Below, piece by piece: positions 7,601 through 55,704 of a stretch of DNA of 64,000 nucleotides. The notes under the pieces are model-generated. The model was not told the DNA's origin. It saw only the letters and a program-made list of their open reading frames with translations, and did not search any database. The DNA comes from an uncultured Gammaproteobacteria bacterium (lineage in GTDB: Bacteria > Patescibacteriota > Patescibacteriia > UBA9934): assembly GCA_964552565.1 (NCBI GenBank), contig CAZKGL010000001.1, forward strand, positions 435,061-499,060, written 5' to 3'. Both the position numbers and the translations under genes were made by a program. Every line of letters starts with the position of its first letter. Positions within the stretch are counted from its first letter, which is position 1.

Positions 7601-10006
7601 ATGACCATGCGACTCTCTCGCGGCATCGGCGTTGCAGCCGGATTCCTCGCCGCATTCCTCATGGCGGCAAGTGCCGCAACCGCCCAGGCCGCGGGCGGAT
7701 GGACCGATGTCGACCTCGACATTTCGCTCGCTGAGCTCAACGGCATCGATGCCTACGGCTCAAGCCTGGCGATGATCGTCGGCAGCGGCGGCCTTGTGCT
7801 CGCGTCAACAGACAACGGCCTCACGTGGTCCGATGCGTCGCTCAGTTCCGCGGACATGGAGGGCCAGTCGTTCGACCTCTACGACGTGGACGTGATGAGC
7901 GCAACGACTGCGGTCGTCGGCGGCGAAGGCGGTATCTGGCGCACGACGGACGGCGGAGACACGTGGACCTGGGAAGAGATCGAGATCCTGGACACCGTCC
8001 GCGGCATCGACATGGGAAGCAGCACGATTGGTATCGCCGCCACGACGAACGGGACGATTTTCCGCACGACGGACGGCGGAGACACGTGGAGCAGCGTCGT
8101 CACGGGCACGAACGACTACTACGCAGCCTACTGCTACAGCGGCGGAAACCCGTGCTGGGCGGCCGGGGCGAACTCGAGCGGCACCGGCATCGTCTCCAAA
8201 TACAGCGGCAGCTCCTGGACAACAACGACGGTAACGGGCAGCGGCGTCTTGTACGGCATCGACTTTGTCTCGACGTCGACCGGATGGGTCGTCGGTGACG
8301 GAAGCTTTTTCAAAACGACCAACGGCGGCTCCAGCTGGTCGTCGGTAACGAGCGAATCGCTCGACGGGACGGAGGCGCTCTACGGTATCGACATGGCGAG
8401 CGCGTCGACCGGCTACGTTGTCACCAACGACGCGAAGATCGTGCAGACGAGCGACGGCAGCAGCTGGACGAACGGCACCGAGGTCGACAGCGTCTTCAGC
8501 TGGATGTACGCCGTAAACGCAAACCTCAAGATCGCGGTCGGCGGTTTCTCGAGCGCCTCGCGCTACGACGTCGCGGCTCCGGACGCGCCGACGAACTTCT
8601 TTGCTGAAGACGACACCACCACGGACCGCACGCCGTCGTTCACCTGGACCGCGGCCGTCGACGATGAAACCCCGATCGACTCCTACGAAGTCAAGCGCAA
8701 CAGCGGAAGCTGGACGAACATCGGCAACGTGACCAGTTACACCTGGCCGGCAACCATCGCGCCCGGCGCGCATACGTTCCTGCTCCGCGCCTACGACAGC
8801 GCCGGCAACGTCAGCGCGGAAGCGACCGAGACACTCACGGTCGACCTCACCGCCCCGACGGTCCCTGCGCCGTCGATCAACGCCTCGGAAGTCGGCGAGG
8901 AAATCACCTACAGCGTCGTTGCGACGGACGCGGAGACCGATGTCGCGAGCTGCACGCTCTACGTCAACGCGGCTAGCGTCGCGACGATGGTCGATATGAC
9001 GTCGGACTTCTACTACAGCACCCTGGCGGCAAGCGCCGGGACGTTCACCGCGTACGCCGTCTGCGTCGACAGCGCGGGCAATAGCACGACCGGCGCGTCG
9101 ACCGCGTACACCGTGACGGAGAGCAGTTCGAGTTCGTCGAGCGGCGACACCACTGCGCCCGTCGTCAGCGCAGTCTCCCCGTCGAGCGGCACATACGGCG
9201 TCATGGCGACCTGGACCGCCACCTACGCCGACGCGGTCGGCGTGACGGGCTGCACCTTCTACTTCGACGGTCGCAGCCGCGGCGCGATGACCATTGAGTC
9301 CGCGACCGCGGGCACGGCGACGACGACGTTCGCGCCGGACGACAGCGGGACGTCGAGCGCGTATGTCGTGTGCGAAGACGCCGCCGGCAATGAAGGGACC
9401 GGCGCAACGACGACCGTCGCGGTCGCCGCAAGCAGCTCGTCGAGCAGCGACACGAGCTCCGACACGTCGGACACCACGGATACCACGGATACAACCGACA
9501 CGACGTCCGACGAGGAAGACGAGGCGGTGAGCGAAGCGGAGCCGGGCAACCTCATTAAGCTCGCGTGTGCGGACGGGGCGGACATCAATGACCCGTGCAA
9601 GGCGGTCTACTACTACGACACGATCGACGAGAAACGCCACGCGTTCCCGAACGAAAAGGTCTACTTCACGTGGTACGACAGCTTCGACGATGTCATCATC
9701 GTCACCGACGAGTTCATGGCGTCCCTCACGCTCGGCGCCAACGTCACCTACCACCCGGGTACGCGGATGGTGAAGTTCATCACCGTCAACACCGTGTACG
9801 CGGTCGGTGAGGAGGGCGAGCTGCGTCCCATCGACAGCGAAGACACCGCCATCAGCATTTACGGCAGCACGTGGAACCAGCAGATCGACGACATCTCGGA
9901 CGCGTTCTACGGCAACTACGAGTTCGGCGAGGAGATCGATTCGACGAGCGACTTCGACCCGGACGCGGTCGAAGCGAGCGTCGACTCCATCGATGACATC
10001 CTCTAG
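7601..10006 (+). CDS. Large secreted/surface protein with BNR (Asp-box) beta-propeller repeats, Ig-like repeats, an acidic Ser/Thr/Asp linker and a conserved C-terminal domain
   Basis: Signal peptide (MTMRLSRGIGVAAGFLAAFLMAASAATAQA); repeated SxDxGxTW-type motifs (TDNGLTWSD, TTDGGDTWTWEE, TTDGGDTWSSV, TTNGGSSWSSV, TSDGSSWTNG); linker SSSSSDTSSDTSDTTDTTDTTDTTSDEEDE; C-terminal ~150 aa nearly identical to the paralog at 10110-12521. Confidence 0.75.
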   Translation: MTMRLSRGIGVAAGFLAAFLMAASAATAQAAGGWTDVDLDISLAELNGIDAYGSSLAMIVGSGGLVLASTDNGLTWSDASLSSADMEGQSFDLYDVDVMSATTAVVGGEGGIWRTTDGGDTWTWEEIEILDTVRGIDMGSSTIGIAATTNGTIFRTTDGGDTWSSVVTGTNDYYAAYCYSGGNPCWAAGANSSGTGIVSKYSGSSWTTTTVTGSGVLYGIDFVSTSTGWVVGDGSFFKTTNGGSSWSSVTSESLDGTEALYGIDMASASTGYVVTNDAKIVQTSDGSSWTNGTEVDSVFSWMYAVNANLKIAVGGFSSASRYDVAAPDAPTNFFAEDDTTTDRTPSFTWTAAVDDETPIDSYEVKRNSGSWTNIGNVTSYTWPATIAPGAHTFLLRAYDSAGNVSAEATETLTVDLTAPTVPAPSINASEVGEEITYSVVATDAETDVASCTLYVNAASVATMVDMTSDFYYSTLAASAGTFTAYAVCVDSAGNSTTGASTAYTVTESSSSSSSGDTTAPVVSAVSPSSGTYGVMATWTATYADAVGVTGCTFYFDGRSRGAMTIESATAGTATTTFAPDDSGTSSAYVVCEDAAGNEGTGATTTVAVAASSSSSSDTSSDTSDTTDTTDTTDTTSDEEDEAVSEAEPGNLIKLACADGADINDPCKAVYYYDTIDEKRHAFPNEKVYFTWYDSFDDVIIVTDEFMASLTLGANVTYHPGTRMVKFITVNTVYAVGEEGELRPIDSEDTAISIYGSTWNQQIDDISDAFYGNYEFGEEIDSTSDFDPDAVEASVDSIDDIL

Positions 10007-10109: not shown

Positions 10110-12521
10110 ATGCGCCATTTGCTTCCCTTCCGCATCGCTTCGATAGGAGCGCTGCTTGTTGCGTCATGGTTCTTCAGTCACTCGGCCCTTGCGGGCTGGT
10201 ACACGCCCACGTCGGGCACGACCGCATCCCTCTACGACATCGACTACTACAGCGGCTACGTCGTTGCGGTGGGCTCGGGCGGGACAATCCGCTTTTCCGT
10301 CGATGCCGGACATTCGTGGTCAACGAGCACGAGCGGCACCACGTCGGCGCTGTACGCAGTCGATTCGGATAGCGGCTATGTCCTCGCCGTCGGCTATGGC
10401 GGCGTCATTCTGCGATCGACCAACTACGGCGCGACATGGACTGCCGTCACGAGCGGCACCACCGCGTCGTTGTACGACGTCATGATGAATCCCTACGGCC
10501 GGGCGTTCGCCGTCGGCTATGGCGGCGTACTCCTCACCTCAACGGACTACGGCGCGACATGGAGCGCACAGACTTCTGGTACGACGAACACGCTCCAGGC
10601 GGTTGACATTTGGGGCACCACCCGCGCCTACGCCGTCGGTTCGAGCGGCACCATCTTGTACTGGAACGGGACGACATGGAGCGCACAAACGTCCGGGACA
10701 ACGGAGACGCTGTACGGTGTCGCGATGTCCGGGACAACGGAAGCCTGGGTGGTGGGCTCCGGCGGCGTGGTACGGAAAACGACCGATGGCACGACGTGGA
10801 GCAGCGTCACGACGATTACCGGCCAAACGCTCTACAGTATCGAGATGTCGTCGAGCACGGCGGGCGGCATCATGGCAAAGACCGGCTTGTACGAAACCAC
10901 GAACGGAACGACATGGGCGGCAGCGTCGACCGGCAGCTGGTCGAGCGTATCCTGGGTGCTGAACGTCGATTACGGCACGATCCGTTTTGCCGTGGGCGCG
11001 AGCGGGAATATCCGTCGCTATGACCACTACGGCCCGGCTGTGGGTGCAGTAACACCGACGACTGCGCTCGAGGGCGTCCCGGTCACCTTCAGCGTTGACG
11101 CGACGGATGAAGCGGTCGTGACCCGATGCGATATCGAAATCCTTTCGGGTGACGGCAGCGGCGTCGTCCTGGACGGCGTGGACAGCGAAGATGACAGCTG
11201 GACGGCAAGCTATACGCTGAGTGCCGGCACCTACACGACCCAAGCGACGTGTTACGATCCGGCCTATAACTTTACGATGGGCGCAAGCAGCACCCTGACC
11301 GTCTCTGCGCCGGCGGACACGACCGAGCCCACTGTCGGGTCGCTCATCGTCGTCGAGGACGCCGTCGGGTCGCCGAGCGTATTCACGGTTTCGGCGTCGG
11401 ACGACGTCGGCATCGACTTCTGCACGCTCGTCATCTTGGAGGGCGACCTCGGCAGTGCGGGATTCCGCATGGCCATCCCGGCGTACGCCACCGCGGACAT
11501 GACCGGATCGGATGGTGCGTACACGGCAACATACACCTTTACTGCGGCAGGCGATTACACGGCATACGCGTACTGCCGCGATGCGGCGGGAAACCAGGCG
11601 AACACCGCGGATGCCATCTTTACGATTGACGCCGCGGCTGCGGCATCGGATACCGACGACACCGCGCCGACCATCGGGACGCCTTCCCCGACGAGCTTCA
11701 CGCTCGGCACCTCGCGCACGGTCACGGCGACTGTCAGCGACGACGTCGGCATCGAGAGCTGCGACCTCTTCATTGACGCTGAGAACGCCGGACTCATGAC
11801 GGTGAGCGGCGGGACAGCGAGCAAGTCCTACACCTTCTCGACAAACGACTGGGCCGACGGCGATACGGCGACGGTGACGGTGGAATGCGCAGACGAGGCC
11901 GGCAACTTCGACAGTACGTCGGTCGTCGTCACGCTCAGCGAGGCGGCGGTCGCGGATGAAGAAACGACAACGGAAGAAGAAACCGCGACGGATGAAGAAA
12001 CGGTAACCGTCGAAGAAGACCTGACAAACGAGGACGGCGACGCAGAGGCAGGCATGCTCATCAAACTCGCCTGCAGCGAAGGCGCGGACGTCAATGACCC
12101 GTGCAAAGCGGTCTACTTCTACAGCGAGTACGACGGCAAGCGCCACGCGTTCCCGAATGAGAAGGTCTACTTTACCTGGTACGCGAACTTCGACGAGGTC
12201 GCGGTCGTGAGCGACGAGTTCATGGCATCCCTCACCTTGGGACGCAACATCACGTACCGCCCCGGCACCCGCATGGTGAAGTTCATTACCGTCAACACGG
12301 TCTACGCGGTGACCCGAGGCGGCGTGCTGCGTCCCATCGACAGCGAGGAAACGGCCATCGCCCTCTACGGCGCGACGTGGAACCAGCAGATCGACGACAT
12401 CTCCGACGCGTTCTACGGCAACTATAGCTTCGGTGACGAAGTGACGAGCGGCGATGACTACGACGCGGAGACTGAGGAAGACGCCATCACCACGATCGAC
12501 GCCAACCTCCAGTGGCAGTAA
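10110..12521 (+). CDS. Paralogous large secreted/surface protein with BNR-like repeats, Ig-like repeats, an acidic linker and the same conserved C-terminal domain
   Basis: Signal peptide (MRHLLPFRIASIGALLVASWFFSHSALA); repeated TW-containing propeller-like motifs (SVDAGHSWSTSTSGTT, TNYGATWTAVTSGTT, TDYGATWSAQTSGTT, TDGTTWSSV); C-terminal domain GMLIKLACSEGADVNDPCKAVYFY...GTRMVKFITVNTVYAV...WNQQIDDISDAFYGNY shared with the first paralog. ATG at 10110; the listed ORF begins at an upstream GTG. Confidence 0.75.
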   Translation: MRHLLPFRIASIGALLVASWFFSHSALAGWYTPTSGTTASLYDIDYYSGYVVAVGSGGTIRFSVDAGHSWSTSTSGTTSALYAVDSDSGYVLAVGYGGVILRSTNYGATWTAVTSGTTASLYDVMMNPYGRAFAVGYGGVLLTSTDYGATWSAQTSGTTNTLQAVDIWGTTRAYAVGSSGTILYWNGTTWSAQTSGTTETLYGVAMSGTTEAWVVGSGGVVRKTTDGTTWSSVTTITGQTLYSIEMSSSTAGGIMAKTGLYETTNGTTWAAASTGSWSSVSWVLNVDYGTIRFAVGASGNIRRYDHYGPAVGAVTPTTALEGVPVTFSVDATDEAVVTRCDIEILSGDGSGVVLDGVDSEDDSWTASYTLSAGTYTTQATCYDPAYNFTMGASSTLTVSAPADTTEPTVGSLIVVEDAVGSPSVFTVSASDDVGIDFCTLVILEGDLGSAGFRMAIPAYATADMTGSDGAYTATYTFTAAGDYTAYAYCRDAAGNQANTADAIFTIDAAAAASDTDDTAPTIGTPSPTSFTLGTSRTVTATVSDDVGIESCDLFIDAENAGLMTVSGGTASKSYTFSTNDWADGDTATVTVECADEAGNFDSTSVVVTLSEAAVADEETTTEEETATDEETVTVEEDLTNEDGDAEAGMLIKLACSEGADVNDPCKAVYFYSEYDGKRHAFPNEKVYFTWYANFDEVAVVSDEFMASLTLGRNITYRPGTRMVKFITVNTVYAVTRGGVLRPIDSEETAIALYGATWNQQIDDISDAFYGNYSFGDEVTSGDDYDAETEEDAITTIDANLQWQ

Positions 12522-19145: not shown

Positions 19146-19892
19146 TTATTCGAGCTCCGCGTCAATGAGGTCCACGAAGGTCTCCAGCGGAACTGCGCCC
19201 GAGACGAGCTGGCCGTTGACGAAGGTCGCCGGGGTGCCGCTGACGCCCGCAGCACGGCCGGAGGAGGTGTCCTCGGAGATCTTGCTCGCGTACTTCTCGC
19301 TCTCGACGCAATCGTCGAACTGCGAGCGGTTCAAACCGAGTTCGTCCGCGAGTTCGCCGTAGTAGTCGTCGCTCAGCGAGTCCTGATTCGCGAAGAGCTC
19401 ATCCGTGTACTCCCAGAACTTGTCCTGCTCGCCCGCGCATTCCGCGGCGAGCGCCGCCGGCTTTGCTTCGGGGTGGAACGACAGCGGGAAGTGGCGGTAC
19501 ACCCACGCGACGTCGTCGCCGTACTTGTCCATGATGTCGAGCATGGTCGGGTGGTGGCGGCCGCAGAACGGACACTCGTAGTCCGAGTATTCGACGACAA
19601 CGACCTTCGCCTTCTCGATGTCGCCGCGCACGTGGTCCTCGTCCGTCACCGGCGCAAGCGTCTTTGCCGTCGCCGTCCCGGTCGAGCCGCTGTCATCATC
19701 ATCGTCGTCAACCACGACCGCATCCTCGTCTGCCGCAACCGCACGGCCGCTCGTCCCTCCCAAGATGTCGCCGCCGACGTACGTCAACGCGATGCCGGCC
19801 ACAAGACCGAACACGAAAATCATTTTCGGATTGCCGTCAAAAAAACCGAGCTGCTTGCTGTCGGTCTGCGATGTCGTTCCTTCTTCGCTCAT
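19146..19892 (-). CDS. Membrane-anchored DsbA-family thiol:disulfide oxidoreductase
   Basis: Thioredoxin-fold CPFC active site (YSDYECPFCGRHHP) with typical DsbA flanking conservation; N-terminal TM helix; poly-Asp stretch (VVVDDDDDDSG). Confidence 0.75.
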   Translation of the reverse strand: MSEEGTTSQTDSKQLGFFDGNPKMIFVFGLVAGIALTYVGGDILGGTSGRAVAADEDAVVVDDDDDDSGSTGTATAKTLAPVTDEDHVRGDIEKAKVVVVEYSDYECPFCGRHHPTMLDIMDKYGDDVAWVYRHFPLSFHPEAKPAALAAECAGEQDKFWEYTDELFANQDSLSDDYYGELADELGLNRSQFDDCVESEKYASKISEDTSSGRAAGVSGTPATFVNGQLVSGAVPLETFVDLIDAELE

Positions 19893-19928: not shown

Positions 19929-20678
19929 TTATTGGCGTTTTTGCCTGTGTGTTATCCACAAGACGGCGCCGCCAAAAATAGCGAGCGCGATGCCGAGATA
20001 CTGGCCTGGCGTTAGCCCAAGATAGCGGGTGTCGACAAGGCGCCAGAAGTCTGTCGCGAAACGGAAAAGGCCATACCAGAGCGAGAAGACGCCGATGAAT
20101 GTCCCGACAGGCGGGCGTCTCCGCGCAAGCAAGACGAAGACTACTGCCATGAACGCCCCGTTGATGACCTCGTACAGCCCGTGGTCATGCCGCACGACGC
20201 CGTCCGGGTATTGCACGCCAAGTGCGAAGTCTGTCGCCGTTCCCGGATGGTCGTGAATGAGGAAACATCCGATGCGGCCGACCATCATGCCAAACGGAAG
20301 CCCGAACGCCGCGTCGTCGGCGTAGCGCCACACGTCCACGTGTTTGCGGCGGAGATACCCGATGCCGACGATCGCGCAAGCAATGAGGCCTCCGAACATC
20401 GACAGCCCGCCCTCCCAAATGGCAAAGACTTCGACGGGGTGCGCGAGGTAATACGGGAATTCGTAAAAGAGCACATGGCCAAGACGGCCGCCGACCATGC
20501 CGGCGAGCACCATCCACGCCGCAAGGTCATAGATGATCTCCGCACGAAGTCCATTCCGTTTCGCATGCCGCCCCGCGACAAGCGCGGCAACAAGGAACCC
20601 GAGCGCAACAAACAGCCCCCACACGTGCAGCGTGAGCGGTCCCAGTGTGATGGTTTTCCACTCGATGTACGGGATCAT
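19929..20678 (-). CDS. lgt: Prolipoprotein diacylglyceryl transferase
   Basis: Lgt N-terminal region (MIPYIEW..ITLGPLTLHVWGLFVALGF) and multi-TM architecture; probable start ATG at 20676-20678. The listed ORF extends further upstream. Confidence 0.85.
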   Translation of the reverse strand: MIPYIEWKTITLGPLTLHVWGLFVALGFLVAALVAGRHAKRNGLRAEIIYDLAAWMVLAGMVGGRLGHVLFYEFPYYLAHPVEVFAIWEGGLSMFGGLIACAIVGIGYLRRKHVDVWRYADDAAFGLPFGMMVGRIGCFLIHDHPGTATDFALGVQYPDGVVRHDHGLYEVINGAFMAVVFVLLARRRPPVGTFIGVFSLWYGLFRFATDFWRLVDTRYLGLTPGQYLGIALAIFGGAVLWITHRQKRQ

Positions 20679-20679
20679 G

Positions 20680-21123
20680 TTAGAGCGCGCCAATGTCCAC
20701 GAGCGCCTTCTTGAATGTCGCCACCGCTTTCCGGGCTTCCCCGCCGCGGAGCGAAGAGTGCGGGTTGTGCGAGAGTTCGTTGCGCAGCTTGTGCGCCCAC
20801 CACACACGGCGGAGTTCGCGATACTTCTTCTGCGCAAACTGCATGCGTGTCGCAAACCGGTCGCCCGGGAAATGCTTCGCTTGCAGCGCTTTGTCGAGCA
20901 CGGCGTCCGCGTGCATCACGGCAAGCCGCGCGCTCATCTCGTCGCCGCGCGCCATGAGCTGCTCGACGTCGCGCCACGCAAGCGCGATCTTTTGCCGCTC
21001 GTTGCCGAACGCCCAGCGGCGAAACAGGAGCTTGAACCGATAGATGCCGTAGGCTGCACCTCCAGTGACAATCACAAAGACAGCGATCGCTATGCCCATC
21101 TGCGTTGGTGTCAATTCAAACAT
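20680..21123 (-). CDS. Hypothetical membrane-anchored protein (147 aa)
   Basis: N-terminal TM helix (GIAIAVFVIVTGGAAYGIY); its stop is adjacent to the lgt start, suggesting an operon. Confidence 0.45.
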   Translation of the reverse strand: MFELTPTQMGIAIAVFVIVTGGAAYGIYRFKLLFRRWAFGNERQKIALAWRDVEQLMARGDEMSARLAVMHADAVLDKALQAKHFPGDRFATRMQFAQKKYRELRRVWWAHKLRNELSHNPHSSLRGGEARKAVATFKKALVDIGAL

Positions 21124-21131
21124 AGCTCATT

Positions 21132-21180
21132 GGCGGGGTCCCCGCACCCCGCCGATCCGCCGGCCTGCGGGGAGGCCGGC
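21132..21180. repeat. GC-rich double-hairpin repeat (family 2, intergenic copy; module order A then B)
   Basis: GGCGGGGTCCCCGCACCCCGCC (A) then GCCGGCCTGCGGGGAGGCCGGC (B); both modules recur verbatim at 31187-31245 in swapped order. Confidence 0.6.
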
Positions 21181-22637
21181 TATGCACGCGGGTGTTCCTC
21201 ATGCCATTTCGTGAGTGATTGGTATGCCGCCCCGGCGCGGAGCACCTTCCCGTCCTGGAACGCGCCGCCGAGGAACTGGAGTCCCACAGGAAGCTGTTCG
21301 TCGGTTGCAACCCCGCACGGCACCGAGATTCCGGCGATGCCGGCAAGGTTCGCACCGACGGTGAAAATATCCGCGTAGTACATCGCCAACGGATCGTCGA
21401 ATTTTTCTCCGATCTTCCATGCAACGACCGGCGAAGTCGGCGTCATAATAACGTCAACTTCGTTGAACGCCGCGTCAAACTCCTGACGAATCTTCGTGCG
21501 CACGGCGAGCGCCTTTTTGTAGTACGCGTCGGCGTATCCCGCGGAAAGGATCGCAGTGCCGAGAATAATGCGGCGCTTTACTTCTCTCCCGAACCCATCC
21601 GAACGGGCAGCGATGGAACTCTCTTCGAGATTTCCTTCCGCACGGGTGCCGTAGCGCATCCCATCGAACCGCGCGAGGTTACTCGATGCCTCGGCCGGTT
21701 GGATGATGTAGTACGTCGGGAGCGCGTACGCGTAGCTCGTGTCGACATCGATCTTCGTGATTTCCGCTCCCTCCGACTCGAGAAGCTTCACCGCGTCCGC
21801 AAATGCGGTGACGTAATCGAACTCCGAAAGTTCCGGAGCATCAAGATAACTCGGGATGCCAATCCTCATCCCTTTCAGCGAGCGGTCCATGAGTTCGGGA
21901 ATCGTCTTCTCCTCGAGGACAACCGAGGTTGCGTCCTTTTCATCGACACCTTCAATCACTTCAAGCGTCAACGCGGCATCATCAACCGAGCGCGCGAGCA
22001 CGCCGATTTGGTCGAGGCTCGACGAGAGCGCCGTGAGGCCGAACCGCGACACTCGTCCGTAGCTCGGCTTCAGGCCGGTGATGCCGCACAGTGCGGCCGG
22101 CTGCCGGACGGATCCGCCGGTGTCGGAGCCAAGCGCGACCGGCACGAAACCCGCAGCAACCGCAGCCGCCGAACCGCCCGACGACCCGCCGGGCACGCGT
22201 GTGACATCCCAGGGATTCTTCGTCTGCTGGAACGCCGATGTTTCCGTCGACGAGCCCATCGCAAACTCGTCCATGTTCGTGCGCCCGACAATGATCGCGC
22301 CGGCAGCCTTCAGCCGCGCGACCACGGTTGCATCGTACGTCGCGACGTACTCCGCGAGGATCTTCGATCCCGATGAGGCGACATGACCCTTCACGAGGAT
22401 GCAATCCTTCACTGCGACCGGCACGCCGGCAAGACGCGGGAGGGATTCGCCGCGGGCCTTCATGTCGTCGATCGTTTGCGCCGCCGCCAGCGCGTCGTCA
22501 TCAAACGTCTCCAAAAACGCGCCGATCTTTTTGTCACGCTTTTTGATGTCCGCGAGGGTCGCCTTCACGACCTCGACCGCGCTCGTGGTGCCGGACGCAA
22601 TCGCGTCGCGGATTTCTTTCGCCGTTGCAAACGCCAT
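21180..22637 (-). CDS. gatA: Glu-tRNA(Gln)/Asp-tRNA(Asn) amidotransferase subunit A
   Basis: Amidase signature (GGSSGGSAAAVAAG...SDTGGSVRQPA); 485 aa; directly downstream of gatC. Confidence 0.9.
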   Translation of the reverse strand: MAFATAKEIRDAIASGTTSAVEVVKATLADIKKRDKKIGAFLETFDDDALAAAQTIDDMKARGESLPRLAGVPVAVKDCILVKGHVASSGSKILAEYVATYDATVVARLKAAGAIIVGRTNMDEFAMGSSTETSAFQQTKNPWDVTRVPGGSSGGSAAAVAAGFVPVALGSDTGGSVRQPAALCGITGLKPSYGRVSRFGLTALSSSLDQIGVLARSVDDAALTLEVIEGVDEKDATSVVLEEKTIPELMDRSLKGMRIGIPSYLDAPELSEFDYVTAFADAVKLLESEGAEITKIDVDTSYAYALPTYYIIQPAEASSNLARFDGMRYGTRAEGNLEESSIAARSDGFGREVKRRIILGTAILSAGYADAYYKKALAVRTKIRQEFDAAFNEVDVIMTPTSPVVAWKIGEKFDDPLAMYYADIFTVGANLAGIAGISVPCGVATDEQLPVGLQFLGGAFQDGKVLRAGAAYQSLTKWHEEHPRA

Positions 22638-29376: not shown

Positions 29377-29802
29377 TCACAGCCCAAGAGCCGCATCGAT
29401 GGTCTTATTCACCATGGCGTCCGCGTCTTTGTTGAACTCCCGGCGCACGTGGCGGAAGGAAATCGTCCGGAAATGCGGTTTGAGGTTGTACACATCCACA
29501 AAGAGGCGCGCAAGCTCCGGGTTCTTGACCTTGTACTCGCCGTTCAGCTGCTTGACCGCGAGCTCGGAGTCCAAACAGACATCGAGCGACTGCACGCCAA
29601 GCTCGTGCGCCTTTCGGAGTCCGATGATGATTCCCGTGTACTCCGCGACGTTGTTCGTCGCATGGGGCAAATACTCGCCCACTTCCGCAAGCCGTTCACC
29701 GACGTTGCCATCCCCGTCGAGCGCAAACAAGACCGCGCCGCCCGCCGCAGGCCCCGGATTCCCTCTTGCCCCGCCATCGGCATACATTCGTGCCCGCTTC
29801 AT
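29377..29802 (-). CDS. rnhA: Ribonuclease HI
   Basis: 141 aa; RNase H fold with catalytic D/E positions (YADGGARGNPGPAAGG...EYTGIIIGL...); its start overlaps the recJ stop (ATGA). Confidence 0.8.
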   Translation of the reverse strand: MKRARMYADGGARGNPGPAAGGAVLFALDGDGNVGERLAEVGEYLPHATNNVAEYTGIIIGLRKAHELGVQSLDVCLDSELAVKQLNGEYKVKNPELARLFVDVYNLKPHFRTISFRHVRREFNKDADAMVNKTIDAALGL

Positions 29803-31559
29803 ACGCGCAAATCAACAATCCGGAGTTGCAACTCACGGCGCCCGTTCCATATATTTACCTCCAGAGTATACGCGACATCGACGCGGTCGCCCATATGGAG
29901 GCGCGCTGCCCATTCGCCGAAGCCAAAGCCGACGAGCTTCCGCGCCTGTCCCGCGCCGTCAAGCGCCGACAACCGCAGGTGGTTCGCCCTGTTCCCCATC
30001 GTTTCGGCCGCAAGAACGCTGACGCCGCACGCGGCAAATATCGGCGCGCGGTTCCCTTCGCCAAACGGCGCGCACCGCGCGACGTCGCCGAGCAACTCCC
30101 ATGTCGCGTGCTCGAGCGGCAGCTCGACGTCGATCGGGAGCGTCTGCGCCGGTCGCGGCCCGCCAAAGAACGTGCGGGCAAACTCCCCGATGCGGGCTTG
30201 GAAGTCCCGGACCAACGACTCGTCCGCGATAGTGAGGCCGCACGCCTGCGGGTGCCCGCCTTTTCTGACGAACATATCGCCGCACGCGTTCATGGCTTCA
30301 ACCAAATGCAAGCCGCCGACGCTCCGCCCGCTGCCCACGTACTGGCCGCCGACGCGGGCGAATGCGAACGCCGGTACCCCGTAGTCGCCGACAAGACGCC
30401 CGGCGATGAGCCCGACGATGCCGGGAAGCCAATCGTCCTTCCACACCACGAGCACAGGAGCAGCCTCAGCAGCGTCGACCATCGCCCGCGCCTCGTCGTA
30501 TGCCTTTGCGAACATTCCCTGCCGTTCACGGTTCAGCGTCTCGAGCGTCGCCGCGGCGCGCTGTGCGGCAACCATGTCGTCTGCAGCAAGCGCGTCGAAC
30601 GCATGCGACGCCGACGTAAGACGTCCGGCGGCGTTCAACCGCGGGCCGATGCGGAAGCCGATCGTCTCCGTGTCGATGGTATCGAGGTCGACGCCTGCGG
30701 AGGCGAGGATGGCGAGCAGTCCCGGACGTTTTGTCTTGCGCAGCACGGTGAGCCCGAAATGTTCGAGGACGCGGTTCTCGCCGAGGAGCGGCATGACGTC
30801 CGTGACGGTCGCGACCGCAACAAGGTCGAGCATCCACTTTTCGTAGCCGACCGGGAATGCCGCGCCGCGTTTCCGCGCTTCGTCGAAGAGCGCACTCGCG
30901 AGTTTGAACGCGACGCCGGTACCGCACAACACTTTGTTCGGGTACTCCTCGCCCGGCGCGAGGGGATGCAACATGATCGCATGCGCGGGAAGGCGATCTC
31001 CCAACTGGTGGTGGTCGCAAATAACGACGTCAACGCCGAGCTCGTGGGCATGGTCGAGCTGGTCCGCGTTCGCAATACCGCAATCGACGGTAAGCAGCAG
31101 CTTCGTGCCCTCGGCCGCCAGCCGCTCCACCGTGTGCATGGCGACGCCGTAGCCGTCCTTCTCCCGGTCGGGCAGGAATACTCCCAGCCGGCCTGCGGGG
31201 AGGCCGGCGATGTACTGTTGATAGGCGGGGTCCCCGCACCCCGCCATTTTTTTAGCAATGTCTTGGAGCGCGCCGTACAGGAGCGCGCTCCCCGACACGC
31301 CGTCGGCGTCATAATCGCCGTGGATCATGATACGCTCGCCGTTTGCAAGCGCGGCGAAGACGCGGTCGACCGCGTGCCGCATCTTCGTGAACAGCCACGG
31401 CGAATGCGTCCCGCGTTCCCAGTCGGGCGATAAGAACGCCGCGCCGTCGTCCGGGCGGACACCGCGGTTCGCAAGCAGTTGCCGAACAATATCGTCCTCC
31501 ACGCGGGGGGCGATGACCCATTGCCGTTCCATGAAGCTGTCGTTACGTCGCGCCTCCAC
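29799..31559 (-). CDS. recJ: Single-stranded-DNA-specific exonuclease RecJ (DHH family)
   Basis: DHH motifs (IHGDYDADGVSG, DHH..., GGGH); start is either GTG at 31559 or ATG at 31532; contains an in-frame family-2 repeat at 31187-31245. Confidence 0.85.
   Translation of the reverse strand: MEARRNDSFMERQWVIAPRVEDDIVRQLLANRGVRPDDGAAFLSPDWERGTHSPWLFTKMRHAVDRVFAALANGERIMIHGDYDADGVSGSALLYGALQDIAKKMAGCGDPAYQQYIAGLPAGRLGVFLPDREKDGYGVAMHTVERLAAEGTKLLLTVDCGIANADQLDHAHELGVDVVICDHHQLGDRLPAHAIMLHPLAPGEEYPNKVLCGTGVAFKLASALFDEARKRGAAFPVGYEKWMLDLVAVATVTDVMPLLGENRVLEHFGLTVLRKTKRPGLLAILASAGVDLDTIDTETIGFRIGPRLNAAGRLTSASHAFDALAADDMVAAQRAAATLETLNRERQGMFAKAYDEARAMVDAAEAAPVLVVWKDDWLPGIVGLIAGRLVGDYGVPAFAFARVGGQYVGSGRSVGGLHLVEAMNACGDMFVRKGGHPQACGLTIADESLVRDFQARIGEFARTFFGGPRPAQTLPIDVELPLEHATWELLGDVARCAPFGEGNRAPIFAACGVSVLAAETMGNRANHLRLSALDGAGQARKLVGFGFGEWAARLHMGDRVDVAYTLEVNIWNGRRELQLRIVDLRV
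31187..31245. repeat. GC-rich double-hairpin repeat (family 2, in-frame copy within recJ; module order B then A)
   Basis: GCCGGCCTGCGGGGAGGCCGGC ... GGCGGGGTCCCCGCACCCCGCC; translated within RecJ as MAGCGDPAYQQYIAGLPAGR. Confidence 0.6.
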
Positions 31560-36450: not shown

Positions 36451-37564
36451 ATGCAGCAATGACGCCGCTACCGATGAGTTCGTCGCCGTCGTAGAACGCG
36501 ATGAACTGCCCCGGCGCGACGGCGCGCTGCGGCGTGTCGAAGGTGACGACCACCCCCGAACCCCCTCCATGAATGGAGGGGGACTTCGCTCCCTCTTGGC
36601 TACCCCCATTCATGGGGGCTAGGGGGTAGACGACACACGGGGCGAGCGGCTGGCGGTAGCGGATGCGCGCCGCGATTTTTTTGTTTTGCGCGTCCGTGAG
36701 GTTGCCCGGAACGGTCTCCGTCAGGTCCGTCGCAACGAGTGCGGAACGGTACAGCGCCGGATCCTCGTCCCCAACCGCGACCACGACCTCGTTCGTCTCC
36801 GGACGGCGTTCGACGACATAGAGCGGCGTCCCGCCGCCGACACCAAGCCCCTCGCGCTGGCCGATGGTGTAGAACGCGAACCCCTTGTGCGTGCCGAGGA
36901 CCTTTCCGTCCGTCGTCACAATGTTTCCCTCGTGCGGCGCAATGCGTTCGGCAAGGAAATCGACCATGTCGACTTTGCCGACAAAGCAGATACCTTGGCT
37001 GTCCTTTTTCTCCGCGACCGGAAGCGCAAACTTCCGTGCACGCTCGCGCACCTCGGGTTTCGTGTACTCGCCAATCGGGAAGATGACGCGGCGCAACTGC
37101 TCCTGCGTCAACTGACAAAGGAAGTAGCTTTGGTCCTTGTTCGTGTCGACGCCGGCATACAACCGCCCGTCCTTCACGCGGGCGTAGTGCCCGGTTGCCA
37201 CGAAGGCGCACCCCAGCGCGTCCGCTTCGCGGAGGAACAGGTCGAACTTCATGTACTTGTTGCACCGCACGTCCGGATTCGGTGTGCGTCCCGCCCTGTA
37301 CTCGGCGATCATGTACTCGTATACCTTGCGGCGATACTCCTCCTCAAAGTCGAACGTATGGAATGGGATACCGAGCTGCGCTGCGACCCGCATCGCGTCG
37401 CGCCGCTCCGCGCGCCAGCCGCAACTTTCGTCCTCAGTCCCGTCGCTCCAGTTCTTCATGAATCCGCCGACGACCTCATAACCCTGTTCCAACAGCAATG
37501 CCGCGCTGACGCTTGAGTCAACGCCGCCAGAGAGGCCCACAAGGACGCGAGGCTTCGGCTGCAT
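36449..37564 (-). CDS. mnmA: tRNA-specific 2-thiouridylase MnmA
   Basis: PP-loop SGGVDSSV, catalytic Cys region and C-terminal barrel (AVAPGQFIAFYDGDELIGSGVI); contains an in-frame family-1 repeat at 36552-36628. Confidence 0.9.
   Translation of the reverse strand: MQPKPRVLVGLSGGVDSSVSAALLLEQGYEVVGGFMKNWSDGTEDESCGWRAERRDAMRVAAQLGIPFHTFDFEEEYRRKVYEYMIAEYRAGRTPNPDVRCNKYMKFDLFLREADALGCAFVATGHYARVKDGRLYAGVDTNKDQSYFLCQLTQEQLRRVIFPIGEYTKPEVRERARKFALPVAEKKDSQGICFVGKVDMVDFLAERIAPHEGNIVTTDGKVLGTHKGFAFYTIGQREGLGVGGGTPLYVVERRPETNEVVVAVGDEDPALYRSALVATDLTETVPGNLTDAQNKKIAARIRYRQPLAPCVVYPLAPMNGGSQEGAKSPSIHGGGSGVVVTFDTPQRAVAPGQFIAFYDGDELIGSGVIAA
36552..36628. repeat. GC-rich double-hairpin repeat (family 1, in-frame copy within mnmA)
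   Basis: ~90% identical to 40752-40828; hairpins CCCCCTCCA-TGAA-TGGAGGGGG and CTACCCCC..GGGGGTAG; encodes PLAPMNGGSQEGAKSPSIHGGGSGVV. Confidence 0.7.
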
Positions 37565-40638: not shown

Positions 40639-42530
40639 AGCTCTTCGTCAAACGTTATGCGCTCGCCGGGCATGACCTGCTGCGGCGCGGCGGCTGGCGC
40701 GTCCCCGCCGTTCCCGCGGTTGCGGCGTCGGCGTCGGCGTTTGCGGCCAACCACCCCCGAGCCCCCTCCATCAATGGAGGGGGACCCGGTTCCCTCTTGG
40801 CTACCCCCATTCATGGGGGCGAGGGGGTTGAGCATGTCGCCTGCACGTGGTGCGGCGTCGTCGTGCGCCGGGACGGGTTTCGGCGGTGACGCCTCGGGTT
40901 TCTTTACGGGGGAAAGTGCGGACAACGACATGCTTTCGCCCGCCTCCCGCGCAACAGGCTCACCGTCATGCACCTTCGGCGCCGGCCCGGACTCCTTGCC
41001 CTTCTGGCGTACCTCCTTCTTTTCCTTCCCCTTCTTCCGCTCCTCCATCACGATGGGGTGGCACTCTTCACAGTAAATCGGGCGCGACCGGTCAAGCTCC
41101 ACCGGCAACAAAAACTTCTTCCCGCAGCGGGTGCAGTCATACTCGTGGCTGTACCGCTTCTTTTTGTCCTCCTTCTTTTGCGCCGCGACCGCGGCGAGCG
41201 CTCCGGCCACGTCGACGTTCGGGTCAAACCCCGCCCACGTCGCGACGTGCTCTTCAATCTGCGCCTTGTTGCCGGCGTACCGTTCGCGCGACTGCGCGAT
41301 GACCCGCTCCGCGCTGCCCGTGCGCTGGGCGATGGGCGGCAGCGTCTGCGCCGAAAACGGATGGCTCGTCACGCCGTCAATCATGAGTTTGACGTAGATG
41401 GCGTGCTTCGGGAGGTTGATGATGTCTTCCGGCGTGAACCGCGGCATGAGCTCGTTCTCGAGGAAGACGGCGTCCGGCGAGCCGACGCGGAAGAACACCA
41501 TGCTGCCGACGTTGCCGAACACTGCGTCCCGCACCGCAGTCGACGTCCCCTGCTCGAGCTGGGCGATGTACTGGTGCGCCATGATGAGGTTGAGCCGGTA
41601 CTTGCGCGCTTCAGAGAGCACGCTTGCGAACGATTCGACGGCAAAGTTCTGGAATTCGTCGACGTACAGGTAGAAATCGTTCCGCTCGGACTCCGGGACA
41701 TTCACGCGCTCCATGGCCGACATCTGGATCTTCGTGATGAGCATGCCGCCGAGGAGGCGCATCGCATCTTCACCGACGCGCCCCTTGGAGAGGTTGATGA
41801 TGAAAATCTTCTGGCTGTCCATGATGTCGCGGATGTTGATGGACGACTTCGCCTGCGCGACGATGTTGCGAATGACCGACGACGACAAGAATTGGCCGAT
41901 CTTGTTTTGGATCGGCGCAACCGCCTCGGTCGCGAATTTCGCATCATATTGGGCGAACTCCTGCAGCCAGAACTGTTTGACGATCGGGTCGGTGACGTTC
42001 GTGATGATCTGCGCGCGGTAGTCCTTATCCGACAGCATGCGATTGATGCCGAGCAGCGTGGATCCCGACGTGTCGAGGAGCGCAAGGATGGTGTTATTCA
42101 AAATGTACTCCATGCGCGCCGACCACACGTTCTCCCAGATCTTTTTGAACACCGACATGAGGCTCGACGCGACGAGGTGCTTCATGGTCGGATCCACCGA
42201 CTCGAGGATGTTGAAGCCGATCGGGTAGTCGAGGTCCGACGGATTGAAATACACGACGTCGTTGATGCGCCAGGACGGGATGTAATCGATCAGCTTTTCC
42301 GCGGTGTCGCCGTGCGGATCGACATAACAACACCCGTGGCCGGCGTAGATGTCGGCCAGGATCATGTTCTCGAGCAGCGTCGTCTTGCCCATGCCGGTCT
42401 TTCCGATGACGTACATGTGCCGGCGGCGGTCGTCGGTCTTGACGCCGAACTTGCGCATCGCATTCCGGAAGTTGGTCTTGCCGAAATAGATGACGTCGCT
42501 CTCGTGGTCATGTTCGTAACGCATTGGCAT
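40635..42530 (-). CDS. FtsK/HerA/TraG-superfamily P-loop ATPase resembling type IV coupling proteins (TraD/VirD4-like), soluble, with a C-terminal zinc ribbon and basic tail
   Basis: Walker A VIGKTGMGKTT, YVDPHGD (like the DPKG motif of TraD/VirD4), Walker B FYLYVDEFQNF, Zn ribbon YDCTRCGKKF...IYCEECH, Arg-rich tail; contains an in-frame family-1 repeat. Confidence 0.65.
   Translation of the reverse strand: MPMRYEHDHESDVIYFGKTNFRNAMRKFGVKTDDRRRHMYVIGKTGMGKTTLLENMILADIYAGHGCCYVDPHGDTAEKLIDYIPSWRINDVVYFNPSDLDYPIGFNILESVDPTMKHLVASSLMSVFKKIWENVWSARMEYILNNTILALLDTSGSTLLGINRMLSDKDYRAQIITNVTDPIVKQFWLQEFAQYDAKFATEAVAPIQNKIGQFLSSSVIRNIVAQAKSSINIRDIMDSQKIFIINLSKGRVGEDAMRLLGGMLITKIQMSAMERVNVPESERNDFYLYVDEFQNFAVESFASVLSEARKYRLNLIMAHQYIAQLEQGTSTAVRDAVFGNVGSMVFFRVGSPDAVFLENELMPRFTPEDIINLPKHAIYVKLMIDGVTSHPFSAQTLPPIAQRTGSAERVIAQSRERYAGNKAQIEEHVATWAGFDPNVDVAGALAAVAAQKKEDKKKRYSHEYDCTRCGKKFLLPVELDRSRPIYCEECHPIVMEERKKGKEKKEVRQKGKESGPAPKVHDGEPVAREAGESMSLSALSPVKKPEASPPKPVPAHDDAAPRAGDMLNPLAPMNGGSQEGTGSPSIDGGGSGVVGRKRRRRRRNRGNGGDAPAAAPQQVMPGERITFDEEL
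40752..40828. repeat. GC-rich double-hairpin repeat (family 1, in-frame copy within the T4CP-like ATPase gene)
   Basis: Near-identical to 36552-36628; encodes PLAPMNGGSQEGTGSPSIDGGGSGVV in the C-terminal tail. Confidence 0.7.
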
Positions 42531-53936: not shown

Positions 53937-54090
53937 GCATCTACAAAAAATGTCCGGCCGGACAAAAAGTGTAGACGGGGGGCGTTACACTTTTTTCACG
54001 ATCGTCGATTTTGTGTAACGCTCCTGGTAACCAAAACCTCACGGCCGTAAAAAATTGATATCCATCACAAAACCGCCCTTGCGAGCGGTT
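53937..54090. repeat. 154-bp direct repeat, copy 1 (identical to 55542-55695)
   Basis: Perfect 154/154 identity; contains the palindrome TGTCCGGCCGGACA and a terminator-like hairpin AAAACCGCCC-TTGCGA-GCGGTT at its high-coordinate end. Confidence 0.9.
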
Positions 54091-54098
54091 CTGCGGGG

Positions 54099-55541: not shown

Positions 55542-55695
55542 GCATCTACAAAAAATGTCCGGCCGGACAAAAAGTGTAGACGGGGGGCGTTACACTTTTT
55601 TCACGATCGTCGATTTTGTGTAACGCTCCTGGTAACCAAAACCTCACGGCCGTAAAAAATTGATATCCATCACAAAACCGCCCTTGCGAGCGGTT
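55542..55695. repeat. 154-bp direct repeat, copy 2 (identical to 53937-54090); immediately downstream of secA
   Basis: Perfect identity to copy 1; its terminal hairpin also serves as the secA terminator (followed by TTTTG). Confidence 0.9.
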
Positions 55696-55704
55696 TTGTG
55701 CGCG

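Follow-up and report, generated by a model that had tools for sequence, protein, structure and literature searches.

The 49-nt feature that follows gatA in the window (the whole 64,000-nt stretch of DNA analyzed here) is most probably, with a likelihood that we put at roughly 0.8, a tail-to-tail dimer of REP-type mini-elements, belonging to a family that would be made and spread by a REP-associated tyrosine transposase (RAYT) and is specific to Uhrbacteria and close relatives. The family is evident from direct observation: its heads and hairpins are conserved, its stems covary, its members are inserted in genes and at gene ends, and it is physically associated with a RAYT gene. It is a REP/RAYT system of a known type, in a new lineage and with an ATAG-like head.

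Organization of the gatA Site

On the plus strand, the site reads ...catAGCTCATT-GGCGGGGTCCCCGCACCCCGCC-GATCC-GCCGGCCTGCGGGGAGGCCGGC-tatgcac..., and all of the genes around it lie on the minus strand. Its first unit consists of a 5′ head, GCTCATT (21125–21131, plus strand), whose last three bases are ATT where the family consensus has ATA, and of hairpin A (GGCGGGGT CCCCGC ACCCCGCC; 21132–21153, plus strand), which is an exact copy of the sequence at 31224–31245; head and hairpin together are recovered as a covariance-model match (21125–21155, 44.9 bits). The 5-nt sequence GATCC (21154–21158) is recognized, from its sequence and from the orientation of the units on either side, as the tail-to-tail spacer between inverted units. 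The second unit is read on the minus strand and comprises hairpin B′ (GCCGGCCT CCCCGC AGGCCGGC; 21159–21180; covariance-model match 21157–21187, minus strand, 40.2 bits) and its 5′ head, GTGCATA (21181–21187, minus strand), which overlaps the final two codons of gatA. The stop codon itself, TAG (21182–21180), is made of the ATA of this head together with the first G of the hairpin; the final base of hairpin B′ in window coordinates is the G of the stop codon, so that hairpin and stop overlap by a single base. Read on the coding strand, the site is the tail-to-tail dimer [GTGCATA-B′]-GGATC-[rcA-AATGAGC]. The module order A-B given in the earlier note on this DNA is accordingly right for the plus strand, whereas the direction of transcription gives B′ and then rcA.

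The upstream host gene, gatA (485 aa; 21180–22637, minus strand), has its stop codon overlapped by the B′ unit, and a Pfam Amidase occupies the position that corresponds to gatA in the syntenic locus L142. Downstream lies a 147-aa ORF (orf147; 20680–21123, minus strand) with a hydrophobic N-terminus and no Pfam match, whose ATG is 8 nt downstream of rcA, and this ORF is followed by lgt (19929–20855, minus strand; Pfam LGT, 176 bits). The three genes are tightly packed on a single strand and their order is kept in the relative L142. Rfam covariance models returned no match at E ≤ 1 for positions 20500–21800. We propose that the dimer would have landed in a gatA–orf147 spacer that was probably minimal, where its head came either to overlap the stop codon of gatA or to provide it, and that two stable hairpins would form on the polycistronic mRNA; at most, these hairpins may slow decay from the 3′ end or reduce translation near the gatA stop or the next start. 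The corresponding region of L142 has palindromes of its own: both its gatA–orf148 spacer (101 nt; 21115–21215) and its ligA–gatC spacer (81 nt; 19265–19345) hold other, long nested palindromic elements, and in the former the B′ and A heads of the window are present as the 7-mers GTGCATA and GTTGATA, respectively. No orthologous relic of the dimer was detected after gatA in L142, as the alignment of its spacer with that of the window lacks significance (52 of 500 shuffles reach its score).

The gatA Hairpins and Transcription Termination

The earlier note had suggested that the hairpins double as the gatA terminator, i.e., that hairpin B and/or hairpin A ends the transcript intrinsically (Rho-independently). 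In its favor, two very stable, GC-rich RNA hairpins (about −36 kcal/mol) sit directly after the stop codon, as in intrinsic terminators, and REPs elsewhere have often been discussed as terminator-like or mRNA-stabilizing (PMC3733652). However, a T/U run is missing after both hairpins on both strands, the gatA site is absent from the terminator-scan results, and the next ORF begins 8 nt downstream on the same strand within a gatA–orf–lgt order that is kept in L142. The same hairpins, moreover, occur as identical copies inside the recJ, glmS, holA, holB, ribonucleotide reductase (RNR) and RAYT ORFs, where termination would knock out the host gene; the evident terminators of this genome are hairpins with an A-tract, a stem and a T-tract; and the fold z-score of the region is only −1.16 in its GC-rich context. 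Termination by these hairpins is very improbable on this evidence, and we reject it because of the missing U tract, the operon-internal position, the presence of the same elements within ORFs and the T tracts of the real terminators: the gatA hairpins are not a transcription terminator.

Sequence and Covariation of the Repeat Unit

Hairpin A (GGCGGGGTCCCCGCACCCCGCC) occurs exactly at 21132–21153 and 31224–31245, and hairpin B (GCCGGCCTGCGGGGAGGCCGGC) exactly at 21159–21180 and 31187–31208; no additional copy of either was found in the 64-kb window at up to three mismatches, and 100 dinucleotide shuffles gave mean numbers of chance matches of 0.00 and 0.01. The observation in the earlier note that the same 22-nt hairpins are present at the gatA site and within recJ is hence upheld, with all four copies exact and none expected by chance. 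Each 22-nt hairpin has a perfect 8-bp stem and a 6-nt loop, and the two fold independently (about −10 kcal/mol each as DNA and about −36 kcal/mol for the pair as RNA). When B is read on the opposite strand as B′, it has the loop CCCCGC and the closing T-A pair in common with A and matches it at 16 of 22 positions; the six differences are all compensatory and amount to three G-C to C-G flips of stem pairs. A and B′ are, to judge by their sequences, stem variants of the same unit in opposite orientations, and their description in the earlier note as two different modules gives way to one of inverted copies of a single type, with compensatory stem changes and a 5′ head on each. A kissing loop or pseudoknot between the complementary A and B loops of one strand was also considered, and was dropped because B is an inverted copy of the element type of A.

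To survey the family more widely, the metagenome collection was scanned with the six variable positions left open (pattern GSCGGSSTCCCCGCASSCCGSC) and the species-representative genomes were scanned with A itself. Exact A is by far the commonest variant in the open-position metagenome scan (37 matches) and nearly always follows ATA. Matches that carry a head are almost all perfectly paired, and only 1 of 83 unpaired variants has an ATA/ATC-type head; the unpaired variants are chance matches in GC-rich DNA. Among 38 non-redundant copies of A, the 5′ flank has G at −6 in 29 and T at −5 in 28, followed by any base and then by A, T and A at −3 to −1 (36, 35 and 34 copies, respectively), and no conservation was found in the 3′ flank of the same copies. 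The resulting head consensus is GTNATA for A units and GTRCATM for B′ units, the latter appearing as GTGCATA at gatA and as GTACATC in recJ. Further headed variants have the stem GGCGGCCT/AGGCCGCC or the loops CCCTGC, CCTTGC and CCCTTG. When 25 units are aligned, every cell pairs and four of the eight stem pairs show double changes, a degree of covariation that none of 500 shuffles and none of the slid controls reached. A covariance model derived from the aligned units finds exactly four significant members in the window (36.7–46.6 bits), the next best match scoring 15 bits.

A Head-to-Head Dimer within recJ

The other pair of units in the window lies inside recJ (29799–31559, minus strand), the product of which is 100% identical to a Candidatus Uhrbacteria RecJ; the window is part of a Ca. 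Uhrbacteria genome. Here, the units form a head-to-head dimer, rcA-TATCAAC-A-GTACATC-B′, with a geometry of 22+15+22 nt. Hairpin B′ (31187–31208, minus strand; 36.7 bits in the covariance model) encodes AGLPAGR; the 15-nt junction (31209–31223) is made up of the B′ head GTACATC (31209–31215, minus strand), one base and the A head GTTGATA (31217–31223, plus strand); and the minus strand of hairpin A (31224–31245, plus strand; 46.6 bits) encodes AGCGDPA. Together, they contribute the in-frame peptide ...KKM-AGCGDPA-YQQYI-AGLPAGR-LG... to RecJ. Both the order and the orientation of the units differ between the gatA and recJ sites. The dimer segment is a 20-residue insertion relative to the solved RecJ 8y30, and the loop that bears it has 24 residues compared with 10 in most Patescibacteria RecJ (+14 aa), with loop length being variable among Uhrbacteria. 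The recJ loops of L142 (10289–10319) and L143 contain different hairpins (AGCGGGGGATGGGACCCCCGCC in L142 and GAGGCCT...AGGCCTC in L143) in the same place and orientation as the A unit of the window, beside a TAT-A-C head; they may reflect either a fixed site at which hairpins turn over or a hot spot of repeated insertion.

Distribution of the Family across Genomes and Genes

Outside the window, the identical 22-mer A is present in 38 non-redundant contexts in Uhrbacteria-like metagenome-assembled genomes (MAGs) and metagenome contigs with GC contents of 0.51–0.67, where it is intergenic, at gene ends or in-frame within proteins. The earlier note had named similarity restricted to the two sites in the window as the finding that would count against it; instead, its proposal that one family of elements occupies both intergenic and in-frame coding positions is reinforced by these 38 exact copies, several of which lie in verified proteins. 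The in-frame hosts verified by Pfam are GlmS, ribonucleotide reductase, HolA and HolB (the delta and delta′ subunits of Pol III), an HI0933-like flavoprotein, a class-II aaRS-like protein and a PGA_cap/Memo protein. The unit is translated as 8-residue modules in three frames (AGCGDPAY, IGGVPAPR and RGAGTPPI/M), and copies occupy both orientations relative to transcription. With four units in the 64-kb window, 11 exact copies of A in the MAG CAYRYG01 and at least seven on the contigs of one metagenome sample, copy number looks low relative to classical REP hosts. Only two matches to the degenerate pattern were found on viral contigs. Many of the host contigs encode proteins that are 64–86% identical to those of Uhrbacteria-type loci.

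Locus L003, from the MAG CAYRYG01, is syntenic with window positions 22.2–28.8 kb, and its LigA reads through an A unit to end ...MLGGVRGPRL*, with the stop codon TGA supplied by the head TATGAC. The LigA of the window ends ...ILGS*, two bases before the gatC start, and the orthologous LigA site is therefore empty in the window. A single unit adds ~24 nt, and an estimate of +8 aa for a single unit comes from the RecJ of L142 and from GlmS, the latter compared by eye with an E. coli sequence. No target duplication was seen at the insertions, and a search for a filled and an empty site in near-identical strains found no such pair. Measured against their homologues, the units behave as insertions.

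Several further copies have features of their own. CAYRYG01 (L002–L013), which is titled "uncultured Gammaproteobacteria", shares synteny with the Uhrbacteria window from gatA-gatC-ligA onward at 50–70% amino acid identity, and also encodes proteins that are 73–86% identical to those of other REP-bearing contigs; its taxonomic label is probably wrong. In L004 (7194–7259), from the Opitutales MAG JBBRHC01, the identical 22-mer A follows GTAG, the canonical head, and 22 nt separate it from an inverted near-copy, as in a REPIN-like doublet; the same hairpin therefore serves a GTAG-type REP family in another phylum. Near an A copy in L105 (reverse-complement strand), there are three tandem 33-nt copies, each comprising rcREP, head and an 11-nt linker, that become progressively degenerate and are in-frame within a Memo/PGA_cap protein (RRGAGTPPIAAW-SGAGTPRIVAW-LGAGTPPLELSF).

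Association with a RAYT Transposase

The contig L040/L137 encodes a 194-aa ORF that is identified as a REP-associated tyrosine transposase by NCBIfam NF047646 (REP_Tyr_transpos; 101.9 bits, cut-off 80) and also matches Pfam Y1_Tnp (PF01797; 31 bits, cut-off 23). Its HUH motif (PDHFHAL) and tyrosine motif (YIVQNPV, of the form YIxxNPV) align to those of E. coli TnpA-REP (4ER8). The contig belongs to Uhrbacteria: its permease shares 83% identity with a protein of Ca. Uhrbacteria RIFOXYB12_FULL_58_10. On both sides of the RAYT gene, shortly before its ATG and after its stop codon, lie exact A units whose 14-nt heads are identical, and the flank also holds a cluster of REP variants, some of which are nested. 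The ORF itself contains a head-to-head dimer of the form rcA-15 nt-GGCGGCCT variant, and this 22+15+22 geometry is common to recJ in the window and to the RAYT genes of L137 and L140. The layout recurs in L140, from a species whose RAYT is 82% identical, and again in L145, where the RAYT has 46% identity and the REPs combine the same stem with the loop CCCTTG. The core of RAYT has a dN/dS of 0.08 at a dS of 1.18, and the enzyme is therefore maintained by purifying selection.

No RAYT gene was found within the 64-kb window, including with RAYT/IS200 query sequences; mobilization in this genome is therefore something that we infer. The search of the window and of all loci with these transposase sequences revealed the RAYT of L040, and its single weak match in the window was to RecJ, on account of the REP-encoded peptides that the two proteins share. 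A word-indexed search for homologues of the L137 RAYT returned three proteins only, whereas a full HMMER scan with RAYT returned three representatives at E ≤ 1e-30 and 140 at E ≤ 1e-10.

The RAYT proteins (P0121, P0122, P0244, P0245, P0247 and P0248; L137 10001–10585, L140 208–792 and L145 2298–2840) also invite a comment on their own sequences. In all of the RAYT relatives, at 38–47% identity, the stretch from the HUH motif to the Tyr motif contains REP-like peptides at one shared position, such as RRGAGTPPM in P0248 and three G..APPM/V repeats in P0247, and the REP-encoded segment of P0121 is an insertion of ~43 aa relative to E. coli TnpA-REP. These peptides may be an autoregulatory or self-targeting feature. 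Nested elements, in which the loop of an A-type hairpin is interrupted by a second small hairpin (e.g., GGCGGGGTGCAG[GCCTGTCCGGCTCCGCCGGAG]ACCCCGCC), are present in L137 (9898–9947, 10591–10640 and 10713–10762) and L140 (154–204). A 122-nt difference between the REP clusters of L136 and L137 was set aside as evidence of mobility because it has the look of repeat collapse, the two being assemblies of the same sample.

Proposed Mechanism

E. coli TnpA-REP and the IS200/IS605 family provide the established basis for the mechanism that we propose, in which an HUH/Y1 enzyme of the RAYT type would produce and spread the elements. RAYT would bind the folded hairpin in single-stranded DNA, read the head, or tag, at the foot of the hairpin, and cut and rejoin at the head, yielding new copies. 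The one-sided head and the absence of target duplication fit such a hairpin-guided mechanism. RAYTs are not known to transpose REPs in vivo in any organism.

Alternative Explanations and the Conservation of the Units

Other origins for the repeats were also weighed. If there were no wider family, the repeats could have arisen by local duplication or by gene conversion between gatA and recJ, or could be a peptide motif under selection, which would accord with the restriction of these sequences to two sites within the window; we give this next to no chance, as 38 more contexts exist in other genomes, the three reading frames yield unrelated peptides and other copies are intergenic, and the units are ordered and oriented differently at gatA and in recJ. 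A miniature inverted-repeat element or a footprint of a DDE transposon could likewise be small, palindromic, dispersed and at times clustered or nested, as these units are. This is extremely unlikely nonetheless: target-site duplications are lacking, as are terminal inverted repeats other than the hairpin, conservation is one-sided at the 5′ head, as is typical of hairpin-guided Y1 transposases and not of DDE elements, and the associated gene is a RAYT.

A further reading is that the hairpin is a selected cis-acting motif with a host function (mRNA stabilization, protein or nucleoid binding, or DNA uptake) and not mobile DNA. The 22-mer is identical in genomes whose GC content ranges from 0.51 to 0.67; orthologues of the class-II aaRS-like gene (L124/L132) have a dS of 1.3, yet the element and its head have 0 changes; the REP-bearing segment of the RAYT gene (L137 vs. 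L140) has a dS of 0.18 compared with 1.18 elsewhere in the gene; and the stem changes are compensatory. Against this stand the occurrence of units in both orientations to transcription and in several frames, which argues against a role at the RNA level, the flanking of the RAYT gene by the family at three loci and the behavior of the units as insertions relative to homologues. The density of REPs here is also far below that of known uptake sequences, which speaks against a selected uptake signal. We consider a selected motif alone to be unlikely, and note that selection of this kind is compatible with a REP origin and does not exclude the main explanation. Under the preferred reading of a RAYT-linked REP family, the perfect conservation of the 22-mer across genomes with saturated synonymous sites nevertheless differs from what is predicted for a purely selfish, decaying repeat. 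The identical units at orthologous sites, the peptides within RAYT and the hairpins at the recJ site imply either selection on the DNA hairpin or continual re-templating and homogenization. One tentative and rather unlikely possibility is that REPs are kept or continually re-templated at fixed sites by RAYT in a long-lived and possibly beneficial partnership, with the REP inside the RAYT ORF being autoregulatory; if so, the hairpins within the RAYT ORF and within essential genes of replication and repair would keep an identical 22-nt sequence while their synonymous neighbors saturate.

Comparison with Known Systems

The family most closely resembles the REP/BIME/REPIN and RAYT systems of E. 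coli, Pseudomonas and Stenotrophomonas (SMAG). As in those systems, the unit is a short GC-rich palindrome (about 20–40 nt) that forms a stem-loop with a conserved tag at its 5′ foot; units are paired as inverted head-to-head (HH) and tail-to-tail (TT) dimers (TT with a 5-nt spacer at gatA and HH in recJ), including heterodimers of two stem variants comparable to the Y and Z REPs of E. coli BIMEs; copies adjoin the 3′ ends of ORFs; and the RAYT gene is bracketed by its own REPs (a REPtron), the Y1 enzyme with HUH and Tyr motifs and the same-family REP flanks being found in related contigs, outside the window. Unlike those systems, the tag is not GTAG (or CGTC) but ATA within GTNATA, which with the first stem base reads ATAG and is one base from GTAG, and a GTAG head is found among A copies only in the Opitutales copy (L004). 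Copy number looks low, the RAYT ORF itself carries REPs and the host is a candidate-phyla genome of ~0.84 Mb. Nor are the units confined to extragenic positions: intragenic, in-frame copies make up a large share, and many of them lie inside Pfam-verified genes.

Much of this has precedent in the survey of Di Nocera et al. (2013), in which intragenic REPs and dimers encode about 20–30 residues and are overrepresented in genes for replication and repair, HH and TT dimers, heterodimers and sites next to the 3′ ends of ORFs are described, and the GTAG families of Opitutus terrae form very short-spaced HH and TT dimers (PMC3733652); E. coli TnpA-REP is also known to bind and cleave single-stranded REP at the tag (cited in PMC3733652). 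The Uhrbacteria family is like that of O. terrae in its intragenic singles and dimers, its short-spaced HH and TT arrangements and its replication and repair hosts (here RecJ, LigA at its C-terminus, HolA, HolB and RNR), and differs in its phylum and head; Uhrbacteria are absent from that survey (PMC3733652).

More distant likenesses can also be drawn. The IS200/IS605 elements (IS608 and ISDra2, with their single-strand "peel and paste" transposition) share a Y1 HUH enzyme, a hairpin with a short sequence at its 5′ foot, a one-sided conserved flank and the absence of target duplication, but each is a complete insertion sequence that encloses its transposase and has two subterminal hairpins unlike each other, whereas the Uhrbacteria repeat consists of one hairpin and the enzyme is encoded by a single-copy gene with REPs on its flanks. 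The Rickettsia palindromic elements (RPE) are likewise palindromes that lie in-frame in essential protein genes and add surface peptides. RPE-1 elements are 100–150 nt in length with a CGTC tag, and we know of no established link between them and a RAYT; the Uhrbacteria units are, by contrast, ~25–28 nt and RAYT-linked.

Other Repeats in the Window

The window holds additional repeats of other kinds. A second palindromic repeat of ~81 nt, with two hairpins of G/C runs, occurs at 36549–36630 and 40750–40831 in copies that are 90% identical and in-frame near the C-termini of two minus-strand ORFs ((Y/N)PLAPMNGGSQEG..SPSI.GGGSGVV); it is presumably the "family 1" of the earlier note, and a similar two-hairpin architecture is found in the CAYRYG01 loci L002, L006, L011 and L013. 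A direct repeat of 157 nt (53937–54093 and 55542–55698; 99% identical and 1.6 kb apart) is AT-richer than its surroundings and has terminator-like hairpins with A-tracts and T-tracts. Two diverged copies (79–85% identical) of a segment of ~400 nt lie 2.5 kb apart at 9531–9933 and 12037–12439, with an 18-nt tandem repeat (GAAGAAGAAAC-rich) between them at 11953–12024; the duplicated segment probably encodes a domain that is repeated within a surface protein.

Implications for REP/RAYT Biology in Patescibacteria

Most known REP/RAYT systems come from Proteobacteria, with a few other phyla also represented, and our literature search found no report of REP-like repeats or REP/RAYT systems in Patescibacteria or the candidate phyla radiation (CPR). 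The present family indicates that the streamlined, ~0.8-Mb genomes of Uhrbacteria also host hairpin mini-elements that are linked to a RAYT. These genomes have almost no intergenic space, and the elements are tolerated at stop codons and as in-frame insertions of 8 or 20 residues in essential proteins. For the annotation of CPR genomes, REPs explain odd loop insertions, shifted stop codons and the spurious similarity of unrelated proteins. Finally, the presence of nucleotide-perfect REPs against a background of saturated synonymous divergence offers a direct handle on the question of whether such elements are parasites or maintained partners of their transposase.
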